A stretch of 64,000 nucleotides of DNA from an uncultured Candidatus Poseidoniales archaeon (GTDB lineage: Archaea; Thermoplasmatota; Poseidoniia; Poseidoniales; Thalassarchaeaceae): positions 19,248-83,247 of the forward strand of contig CAJJBW010000003.1 in NCBI GenBank assembly GCA_905182515.1, read 5' to 3'. A model generated the notes under the pieces. That model made no database searches. It was given only the letters and a program-made list of their open reading frames with translations, and was not told the DNA's origin. The position numbers were made by a program, and so were the translations under genes. Shown in pieces: positions 29,935 to 32,040 of this stretch (its first letter is position 1; each line of letters begins with the position of its first letter).

Positions 29935-30561
29935 TTAATATTGAACAGGCTCAGGATCAATACTTCTCCATAGGTACCATGTTGCTATAGTTCTCCATGG
30001 TGACCATTTGTCAGTAATTTTCTTTATTTGGGAATTATTCATTTTTTCACCATCTGAATATATTTTTTCTAATGCCCTTATTGCTCCAATATCTCCCATC
30101 GGAAAAATATCAGGCCTTAACAATGTAAAAATTAAAATCATTTCTGCAGTCCACACACCAACTCCTCTAATTTCTGTGAGTTTATCAATTACTAAACTGT
30201 CAGAAAGGTCTTCCCAACTTATCTTATAGTATTCATCCACCCATATTTTAGAAATTCCTTTTATGTACTCTACTTTTCTATGTGATAGTCCACATTTCTG
30301 TAGATTTTCAGCATTTTTCAGAGAAATATTTTCAGGTATAATATCTCCAATTTCATTTGTTAATCTATTCCAAACTGTGTCTGCTGCTTTAACTGATATT
30401 TGTTGCCCAACAATTGAACGTATCAATGTCATAAAAATATCTTCTCTTGATTTTAGCGCAGGTTCTTCGTATAGGCAAATTAATTTATCCATTTTTCCGT
30501 CTATTTCTCTCAAGTATTTCTTCCCTTCTTCCCAGTATTTTGGTATCTTATTATTATTGAT
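29935..30561 (-). CDS. alkA: DNA-3-methyladenine glycosylase (AlkA/HhH-GPD family); start uncertain
   Basis: RSIVGQQIS, GLSHRK, HhH IRGVGVWTAEM, FPMGDIG, WSPWRT. The family N-terminal motif PKYWEEG lies upstream of the track's TTG (30513), so I extend the gene to ATC 30561. Confidence 0.85.
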   Translation of the reverse strand: MNNNKIPKYWEEGKKYLREIDGKMDKLICLYEEPALKSREDIFMTLIRSIVGQQISVKAADTVWNRLTNEIGDIIPENISLKNAENLQKCGLSHRKVEYIKGISKIWVDEYYKISWEDLSDSLVIDKLTEIRGVGVWTAEMILIFTLLRPDIFPMGDIGAIRALEKIYSDGEKMNNSQIKKITDKWSPWRTIATWYLWRSIDPEPVQY

Positions 30562-30567
30562 AATAAA

Positions 30568-32040
30568 TCACCCTTTTATTACTGCAAATGGTTTCAAACG
30601 AGCCACAGGTCTAGCCAACCTAGCCTTTTGAGTTAAATCAATTACTTCATCTACATCTTTGTATGCATCCGGAGCTTCTTCAGAAAGTACATTAGGCGTC
30701 TTTACATTTACGTAAATTCCTTTTGCTTCAAGGTTCTTCTTTAATTCTACAGAATCAATACTGTTTCTAGCCGCCGTTCTAGATAATTTTCTTCCTGCTC
30801 CGTGACATGAAGATGCAAAAGCATCATTCGAACCAATCTTTGGGCCGGCAAGGACCCAAGAAGCTGTACCCATGTCTCCTGGTACGAGGACTGGTTGTCC
30901 AATTCCGGAAAATTGATTTGACAATTCAACATGATCACCACCCAGTGCTCTTGTTGCTCCTTTTCTATGAACGCAGCATTTACATTGTTTTCCGTGAACT
31001 TCGTGATTTTCTATTTTTGCGATATTGTGACTAACATCATATATTAATTTTAAATTACTATCTCTTCCTAATATGTCTCTTAATGAGTTTCTAAGTCGCT
31101 GAGTTAGAGCTGAACGATTGGCGAAAGCGTAATTTCCTGCAGCATTCATTGAATCTACGTATTCTTGACCTTCTTTACTATATATCGGTGCTGCGGCTAA
31201 TTGTCTATCCGTTATCTGAATATCCCACTCAGGAGCATGCCAAAATCCATCATTTTTTTGATATTTGGATTCTATAGCATTAACATGTTCAGAACATACT
31301 TGATGCCCCAATCCTCTTGAACCAGTATGTATCATAGCAGTAATCTGGCCTTTTCTCAAACCATAAGATTTAGCTGCTTCGTGATCAACTATTTTATCTA
31401 CAATTTGCAATTCAAGAAAATGATTTCCTGAGCCTAGTGTTCCTAAAGCACTCATTCCCCTCTTCATAGCCCGTTCACTCAACTTCCTTTCCTGGCAATC
31501 GAGTAAACCATTCGATTCAATGTTAAAAAGATCTCTTGATTCTCCCCATCCTAAATCTACTGCTGCCCCAGCACCTTCAGAGAGAATTACTTCTAATTCA
31601 GTCAAATTTAATTTAACGCCTCCCTTTCTAGACGCACCAGAAGGTATTGTTTGTGCCAATTTTTTAGATAATTCTTTGATATTAATGTCATTAACTCCTA
31701 TGTCTAAAGAACAAAGTCTTACGCCGCAATTAATGTCAAAACCAACTCCTCCGGGAGATATTGAGCCACCTAATTCTCCTGCTTCTGTATCGGTTGCAAC
31801 CACACCTCCAATTGGAAATCCATATCCAAAATGCCAATCAGCCATTGCCCATGCGTTTCCAACAATGCCAGGTAAAGAAGCAGTATTGATTACTTGATTA
31901 GGAGATCTATCATCAGTATGTTCTTTGATGTGCTTCTCATCAGCAATCATTATTGCATCTGTCAACATCCTCCCATGTTTCTTGATACGCATTCTTCCAG
32001 GGCCATTTGATTCTAGGTGCTCTCTCCATTCTCCCTCCAT
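30568..32040 (-). CDS. rtcB: RtcB tRNA-splicing/RNA repair ligase
   Basis: DWHFGYGFPIGG, GFDINCG, GSGNHFLE, IHTGSRGLG, SHN, VHRKGAT, CHGAGR, EEAPDAYK. Confidence 0.96.
   Translation of the reverse strand: MEGEWREHLESNGPGRMRIKKHGRMLTDAIMIADEKHIKEHTDDRSPNQVINTASLPGIVGNAWAMADWHFGYGFPIGGVVATDTEAGELGGSISPGGVGFDINCGVRLCSLDIGVNDINIKELSKKLAQTIPSGASRKGGVKLNLTELEVILSEGAGAAVDLGWGESRDLFNIESNGLLDCQERKLSERAMKRGMSALGTLGSGNHFLELQIVDKIVDHEAAKSYGLRKGQITAMIHTGSRGLGHQVCSEHVNAIESKYQKNDGFWHAPEWDIQITDRQLAAAPIYSKEGQEYVDSMNAAGNYAFANRSALTQRLRNSLRDILGRDSNLKLIYDVSHNIAKIENHEVHGKQCKCCVHRKGATRALGGDHVELSNQFSGIGQPVLVPGDMGTASWVLAGPKIGSNDAFASSCHGAGRKLSRTAARNSIDSVELKKNLEAKGIYVNVKTPNVLSEEAPDAYKDVDEVIDLTQKARLARPVARLKPFAVIKG

Follow-up and report, generated by a model that had tools for sequence, protein, structure and literature searches.

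A putative isoleucine-codon start for a DNA glycosylase gene downstream of rtcB in an uncultured Marine Group II archaeon

Where does translation of a gene begin when no canonical start codon precedes its conserved N-terminus? This question is posed by the junction of two co-directional genes, rtcB, coding for an RNA ligase, and a gene coding for a Mag/AlkA-like DNA glycosylase of the HhH-GPD fold, in a metagenome-assembled genome (MAG; 1.26 Mb, 71% complete, 36.7% GC) of an uncultured Marine Group IIb archaeon, which the names of public homologs assign to Candidatus Thalassarchaeaceae. The stretch of DNA analyzed, here called the window, comprises 64,000 nucleotides (nt) of this genome (G000:C3:19248-83247), and positions given without a contig refer to it. 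Among the archaea of the surface ocean, those of Marine Group II rank with the most abundant, and all that is known of them comes from metagenomes. We propose, with a probability of roughly 0.65, that the glycosylase is translated by near-cognate initiation at an isoleucine codon, AUC 30561 or AUU 30564, led by a Shine-Dalgarno (SD) sequence and probably helped by the termination of rtcB translation. Such an ATC/ATT start, one of the options raised in a preliminary description of the locus, is supported by the spacing of these codons from the SD, by the constraint on the codons for PKYWEEGKKY and by three further genes of the same genome with apparent isoleucine-codon starts.

The conserved N-terminus and the annotated TTG

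The preliminary description had placed the rtcB stop in the frame of the glycosylase, had found no canonical start ahead of the residues PKYWEEG and had pointed to an SD, GGTGA, that spans this stop and ends 6 nt ahead of ATC 30561; direct reading of the minus strand and its translation agree with it on all three counts. The TGA (30570-30568) lies in the glycosylase frame. RtcB matches PF01139 with an E-value of 6e-146 over the entire profile (1-426 of 426), the match ending at residue 490, so that the TGA marks the normal C-terminus of the family, and a same-genus relative (L004) has TAG at the equivalent position, which identifies the TGA as a true stop. Beyond it the strand reads TTT ATT ATC AAT AAT AAT AAG ATA and, from the Pro codon at 30543, CCA AAA TAC TGG GAA GAA GGG AAG AAA TAC TTG. 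Neither ATG, GTG nor TTG occurs in any frame across the 24 nt that separate the rtcB stop from this Pro codon, and the first canonical start in the glycosylase frame is the TTG at 30513-30511, 57 nt (19 codons) downstream of the stop. The GGTGA (30572-30568) ends 3 nt ahead of ATT 30564 as well as 6 nt ahead of ATC 30561. The open reading frame (ORF) of the glycosylase is free of internal stops and frameshifts, and each of the 59 residues invariant in the family is retained, among them the aligned catalytic Asp.

The predicted protein scores 56.1 bits against PF00730 (curated cut-off 26.2; E 5.4e-15), and sequence comparison recovers the PDB entries 2h56, 2yg8 and 3s6i at E-values of 1e-25 to 1e-29. 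Its segment RGVGVWTAEM...FPMGDIG aligns with the HhH and Gly/Pro-rich loop motifs of these three structures, catalytic Asp to Asp, and G133, G135, P154, D157 and G159 are invariant among 36 homologs. In an alignment of the N-termini of 36 homologs (52-70% identical), P7, Y9, W10, K14 and L17 are likewise invariant, the codon for L17 being the TTG at 30513, and a Leu codon occupies this position in all relatives. The homologs are 204-226 residues long and start a few residues ahead of the motif P-x-Y-W-E-x-[GA]-K. An AlphaFold2 model (mean predicted local distance difference test score, pLDDT, 77.7) has a two-lobed all-helical fold with an N-terminal helix, helix 1, at residues 8-20, and the 10-residue blocks spanning residues 11-30 have mean pLDDT values of 90 and 92. 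The model matches Mag2 (4b23), Mag (2h56) and AlkA2 (2yg8) with Z scores of 14-15, from residues 5-8 to residues 203-205; helical folds reach middling Z scores easily, and the case for a true relationship rests on the sequence E-values.

The Bacillus halodurans Mag (2h56), Deinococcus radiodurans AlkA2 (2yg8) and Schizosaccharomyces pombe Mag1 (3s6i) and Mag2 (4b21) share with the window protein the same HhH-GPD fold of about 200 residues, in which the N-terminal domain of AlkA is absent and the N-terminal helix is present. The window protein is related to these four at sequence E-values of 1e-20 to 1e-29 with the catalytic Asp aligned, at an identity of 21-25%. As Mag2 is an inactive homolog, the fold alone does not establish the activity of the window glycosylase, which is a prediction.

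These comparisons bear directly on the alternative that translation starts at the annotated TTG (or at ATG 30492) and yields a truncated glycosylase only, of 192 or 185 residues. This TTG is the first canonical codon, serves as the start in every public gene call and has a weak SD-like, purine-rich GAAGGG 9 nt upstream. Because the solved structures align from residues 5-8 onward and helix 1 covers residues 8-20, a start at the TTG would remove most of helix 1, an element with counterparts in the solved Mag2, Mag and AlkA2: the shortened protein would lack four invariant residues (P7, Y9, W10 and K14) and 9 of the 13 residues of the helix. The preliminary description had held that a P.YWEE-type N-terminus is conserved in this subfamily and that the TTG is consequently too late to be the start, and both statements gain support from the invariant residues, the TTG coinciding with an invariant internal Leu within the predicted helix.

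Candidate start codons and their context

The 3' end of the 16S rRNA, encoded on contig C4, reads ...GGATCACCTCCT and is complementary to GGGUGAU, the sequence that covers the end of rtcB. Across the genome an ATG follows GGTGA at distances of 4, 5, 6 and 7 nt in 22, 11, 17 and 7 cases, respectively, and at 3 nt in a single case; with a usual spacing of 4-7 nt, ATC (6 nt) is better placed than ATT (3 nt). The ATC was also recovered independently by a genome-wide scan for SD sequences followed by isoleucine codons. We therefore regard AUC as about twice as likely as AUU to be the start, and both may be used. Initiation at the AUC would place 16 codons, INNNKIPKYWEEGKKY, ahead of the start used in the databases.

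The codons in question bear the imprint of protein-level constraint. Relative to the closest relative, L002 (71% protein identity), 9 of the 10 residues encoded by the Pro-to-Tyr codons (PKYWEEGKKY, 30543-30514) are identical, with matches at 18 of 20 first and second codon positions and at 6 of 10 third positions. In the rest of the gene 17 of 45 four-fold degenerate sites match, which means that synonymous sites are saturated. From this pattern of substitution it appears that selection at the protein level has acted on the extension during most, if not all, of its divergence from L002, and the codons upstream of the TTG still look coding.

Furthermore, the arrangement of the two genes is of a kind suited to translational coupling. 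The distance from the rtcB stop to the proposed restart is +3 nt for ATT or +6 nt for ATC, and +1 or +4 nt in the relatives discussed below. In Haloferax volcanii termination-reinitiation has been found to operate only over very short distances and to be lost at about 22 nt (PMC10666635). A distance of 3-6 nt lies within this range and the 54 nt to the TTG lie beyond it, so that reinitiation disfavors the TTG. In light of this distance, the lost helix and the coding character of the upstream codons, we consider translation from the TTG alone unlikely, although of the alternatives it deserves the most serious attention. The coupled gene pairs studied in H. volcanii and Escherichia coli (PMC6728339, PMC10666635) are similarly co-directional, with the start a few nt from the upstream stop and the SD within the last part of the preceding gene. 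They differ in that they use ATG or GTG, usually in -4 or -1 overlaps, whereas the restart codon proposed for the window is near-cognate and its coupling to rtcB is deduced from the arrangement.

The region between the genes is also predicted to fold in the RNA into an AU-rich hairpin that encloses the core of the SD along with AUU and AUC (-7.7 kcal/mol, z -3.4; none of 200 shuffled sequences folds as well). Its 3' arm includes a 6-nt insertion specific to this lineage, and the hairpin is not conserved in the relatives, among which only L006 reaches a z of -2.0. Such a hairpin would be consistent with opening by a ribosome arriving from upstream.

ATT, ATC and ATA are listed as rare initiators in table 11 of the NCBI genetic codes. 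In E. coli, initiation at AUA, AUC or AUU reaches about 1-2% of the level of AUG, and the AUU starts of infC and pcnB are the only confirmed ones (bioRxiv 10.1101/063800). Near-cognate codons account for about 30% of the putative alternative initiation sites in H. volcanii, though the authors did not consider them further (PMC7261190). Comparable to the glycosylase start proposed here, those of infC, coding for IF3, and pcnB are isoleucine-type codons behind an SD and constitute the sole possible start of a conserved protein. The archaeal case would differ in that its host checks the start codon by aIF1, aIF1A and aIF2 rather than by IF3, in that nothing points to autoregulation of the infC type, in that the old start was lost by deletion and insertion and not by a point change, and in that two candidate codons lie next to each other. 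Loss of a proofreading factor was considered as a cause of relaxed initiation and rejected: the genome retains the gene for aIF1 (SUI1), the archaeal proofreading factor (PMC7531240).

We posit the following course of events. The ancestral ATG or TTG would have been destroyed by the loss of one base, beside a 6-nt in-frame insertion, and the rtcB stop would have come into frame by accident. The SD GGGUGAU spanning this stop would now position the ribosome so that the initiator tRNA reads an isoleucine-type codon as Met, more likely AUC 30561-30559, with AUU 30564-30562 as an alternative or additional start, and ribosomes that have just terminated on rtcB 3-6 nt upstream would probably help through termination-reinitiation coupling. 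The outcome would be a full-length protein of about 208 residues, synthesized slowly, as would be fitting for a DNA glycosylase. The sequence of the junction, its anatomy in the relatives, the constraint on the extension and the repeated occurrence of isoleucine-codon starts in the genome are observed; the choice of codon, the efficiency of its use and the coupling are what we infer from the features of the junction. By analogy, the mechanism would work like the AUU starts of infC and pcnB combined with tight operon coupling, and would be an archaeal instance of it.

Other isoleucine-codon starts in the genome

We searched the genome for long open frames with ATT, ATC or ATA 4-7 nt past a GGTGA and with no canonical start for at least 8 more codons. 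This strict scan returned three loci, the glycosylase and two others, and a relaxed version added a fourth, giving four cases in the 1.26-Mb, 71%-complete MAG (Table 1). In the gene for an NTPase (NTPase_1, PF03266), ATA-GGA-ATA-AAT-CC in the window's genome corresponds to ATG-GGA-ATA/ATT/GTT in twelve relatives. The ATA is common to four species (G000, G002, G003 and G006; 95-97% protein identity) in which the first 12 codons differ only synonymously, and the P-loop is encoded ahead of the first canonical start. The clade with the ATA also has a stronger SD, GAGGTGAT as against GTGGAGAT, which suggests compensation. In the gene for an FKBP-type isomerase, the ATT of ATT-AAA-GTA-GAA is aligned with ATG in seven of nine same-genus relatives and with TTG in the other two. 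The upstream context, GAAGGTGAT, is identical in five of these nine, its GGTGA contains the TGA stop of the upstream gene, which is out of frame with FKBP, and the core of the FKBP domain lies upstream of the first canonical start. Similarly, in a radical-SAM gene the first codon of ATA-ATT-CAT-CAA aligns with an ATG of the closest relatives (in G003, ATG-ATT-CAC-CAA), and the CxxxCxxC motif is encoded ahead of the first canonical start, which is found 60 codons in. In all three genes the SD stands at the same aligned spacing, ending the equivalent of 4 nt ahead of the isoleucine codon.

Table 1. Positions of the features of the rtcB-glycosylase junction and of the other candidate isoleucine-codon starts
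Feature	Position	Strand	Description
rtcB (RNA ligase)	30568..32040	-	490 codons and TGA stop; ORF and Pfam PF01139 match
rtcB stop TGA	30568..30570	-	In frame with the glycosylase ORF; direct reading and translation
SD GGGTGAT	30567..30573	-	Last rtcB codon, stop and one further base
RNA hairpin, 12 base pairs, AU-rich	30542..30572	-	Encloses SD core and AUU/AUC; putative role
ATT, candidate start	30562..30564	-	3 nt past GGTGA, 3 nt past stop
ATC, preferred candidate start	30559..30561	-	6 nt past GGTGA, 6 nt past stop
16-codon extension INNNKIPKYWEEGKKY	30514..30561	-	Precedes database start
TTG	30511..30513	-	First canonical start codon; used by public gene calls (192 residues); encodes invariant Leu17
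Mag/AlkA-like HhH-GPD DNA glycosylase, coding sequence as proposed	29935..30561	-	208 codons and stop if ATC is the start
NTPase (NTPase_1, PF03266), candidate start	C1:214784-214786 (L032:1285-1287)	-	ATA behind GAGGTGAT
FKBP-type isomerase, candidate start	C6:24526-24528 (L031:1027-1029)	-	ATT 4 nt past GGTGA
Radical-SAM protein, candidate start	C8:118537-118539 (L066:138-140)	+	ATA 7 nt past GGAGG

Based on the placement of these domains and motifs, none of the three genes can work from a canonical start, and they indicate that this lineage tolerates SD-led initiation at isoleucine codons, which in one case has persisted through speciation. The weight given to the three additional starts lies, on this reading of the alignments, in the homology checks and not in the statistic of the scan.

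A second alternative is that the glycosylase has been inactivated recently, is no longer usefully translated and is becoming a pseudogene. The loss of the canonical start is private to the species, its closest relatives G002, G003 and G006 retaining ATG, and the constraint on the extension is compatible with a recent event. The gene may also be dispensable, for a search of 40 genomes failed to find it in 7, of which 5 are at least 90% complete. Yet the intact frame with its 59 of 59 family-invariant residues, the isoleucine starts on strongly conserved genes of the same genome, including the one held across four species, and the presence of the same state in many public records argue against decay, and we judge it quite improbable. 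These records number about 100 contigs from JGI/IMG, Tara, NCBI, Logan and ENA, and encode proteins at least 99% identical to the glycosylase that differ from one another by about one residue each. All of these proteins are 192 residues long, with the TTG as start, or shorter, and none has about 208. The next public relative is 70% identical, with none between 70% and 99%. From the lengths of the proteins in these public records, on which the population argument rests, the loss of the start codon seems to be fixed in the population. A scan of metagenomes with a degenerate back-translation of EEGKKYLREIDGKMDK gave no match, in a set that may leave out records very near the window.

Origin of the junction and its interpretation

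Each of the nine same-genus genomes with the glycosylase gene has rtcB directly upstream of it, with a gap of 1-4 nt. The same order was also seen in one genome of another genus (L013). From the rtcB stop to the Pro codon the nine relatives have exactly 19 nt, as against 24 nt in the window, and their glycosylase gene starts with ATG in five species and with TTG in the other four, either 1 or 4 nt past the stop; within the genus the start codon alternates between ATG and TTG. GGGTGAT precedes the start in eight of the nine (ATG in four, TTG in four), and the ninth, L004, has GGGGTAG with its TAG stop inside and the ATG 4 nt past the stop. In all nine the glycosylase frame is +1 relative to rtcB.

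A pairwise nucleotide alignment of the junction with that of L002 places the old ATG opposite TT in the window, one base having been deleted and G replaced by T. ATT 30564 corresponds to the old second codon (ATT) and ATC 30561 to the old third codon (AGC), and a 6-nt in-frame insertion further downstream brings the net change to +5 nt. By this alignment the in-frame position of the rtcB stop is a by-product of the net +5 nt change, and a single-base change of ATG to ATC, suggested in the preliminary description, is not what happened. In the comparison with related MAGs that it had called for, the relatives start with ATG or TTG, and the old start of L002 lies opposite TT and not opposite ATC 30561.

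The same comparison goes against the fusion that had been raised as a further option, in which read-through of the rtcB UGA, by a suppressor or selenocysteine (Sec)-like tRNA or by leakiness, would join RtcB to the glycosylase. The two ORFs are indeed in frame with a single stop between them and 8 open codons beyond it. However, the +1 offset in the nine relatives makes the in-frame state an indel by-product, TGA is a common stop that ends 212 of 655 long ORFs (about a third), and no tRNA with a UCA anticodon is present among the 27 found by aragorn in the 71%-complete MAG. A natural RtcB-AlkA fusion, which was also to be looked for, was not present among 10 longer homologs searched for PF01139 together with PF00730, which is weak evidence. 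Moreover, the isoleucine starts of the NTPase, FKBP and radical-SAM genes are not explicable by read-through, whereas one mechanism, initiation at isoleucine codons, already covers all four genes. We accordingly hold read-through to be very improbable. Among the aragorn results there was also one tRNA-like call with a two-base anticodon, "(tc)". We likewise give scarcely any credence to an assembly or consensus error at this AT-rich, low-complexity junction that would hide an ATG or TTG of the real genome, for none of the roughly 100 records, drawn from many assemblies and sources, has the form of about 208 residues that an upstream canonical start would give, and the difference from the relatives is a net +5 nt remodeling and not one base.

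Several points weigh against the initiation at AUC or AUU that we favor. The start region was remodeled by indels, so that, in contrast to the clean cases of the three other genes, no isoleucine codon coincides with the position of the old start, and the spacings of 3 and 6 nt depart from the 4 nt seen in those genes. The test of constraint comprises 10 codons and does not separate a gene that is still translated from one whose start was lost recently. The GAAGGG ahead of the TTG makes some truncated product possible, and the hairpin would mask the SD unless opened by an upstream ribosome. Finally, isoleucine codons make up 3 of the 16 SD-positioned codons in pre-start regions against a background of 11% (p 0.26), which is not significant.

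A stronger form of the proposal is that the glycosylase has no independent initiation at all, its SD, AUU and AUC being locked in the hairpin, and that, more broadly, isoleucine starts are a regular fourth class of start in Marine Group II. We consider this possible but would not count on it. If true, the protein would be made only when a ribosome terminating on rtcB opens the hairpin, so that the output of glycosylase would be fixed at a small fraction of that of RtcB, and in Marine Group II, under mutation pressure biased toward AT, stronger SDs would make up for the isoleucine starts.

The proposed initiation would have consequences for annotation. Every public copy of the glycosylase, on the approximately 100 contig records, would be annotated 16 residues short, with most of helix 1 missing along with four of the invariant residues. 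Likewise, the NTPase would be called without its P-loop, the FKBP without its N-terminus and the radical-SAM protein without its Fe-S cluster motif. A gene finder that admits no start other than ATG, GTG or TTG would cut such genes short, and would thereby mislead the alignment of families, the prediction of structures and the inference of metabolism. The glycosylase would also provide a concrete example of near-cognate initiation in the archaea, whose start-codon checking relies on factors of the eukaryote type.

The relaxed scan returned 24 candidates in total, mostly antisense junk. Among them, an MscS-like channel with an SD-positioned ATA (C11:5882, plus strand) was rejected as unclear, its relatives matching only from about residue 60. 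A gene for L24e was not found in the 71%-complete MAG. SD-positioned non-canonical codons were further seen to head two long ORFs on the plus strand, namely a CTG at C1:90447, before an ORF of 1130 residues with no Pfam hit, and an ATC at C5:103610, before a sulfotransferase.

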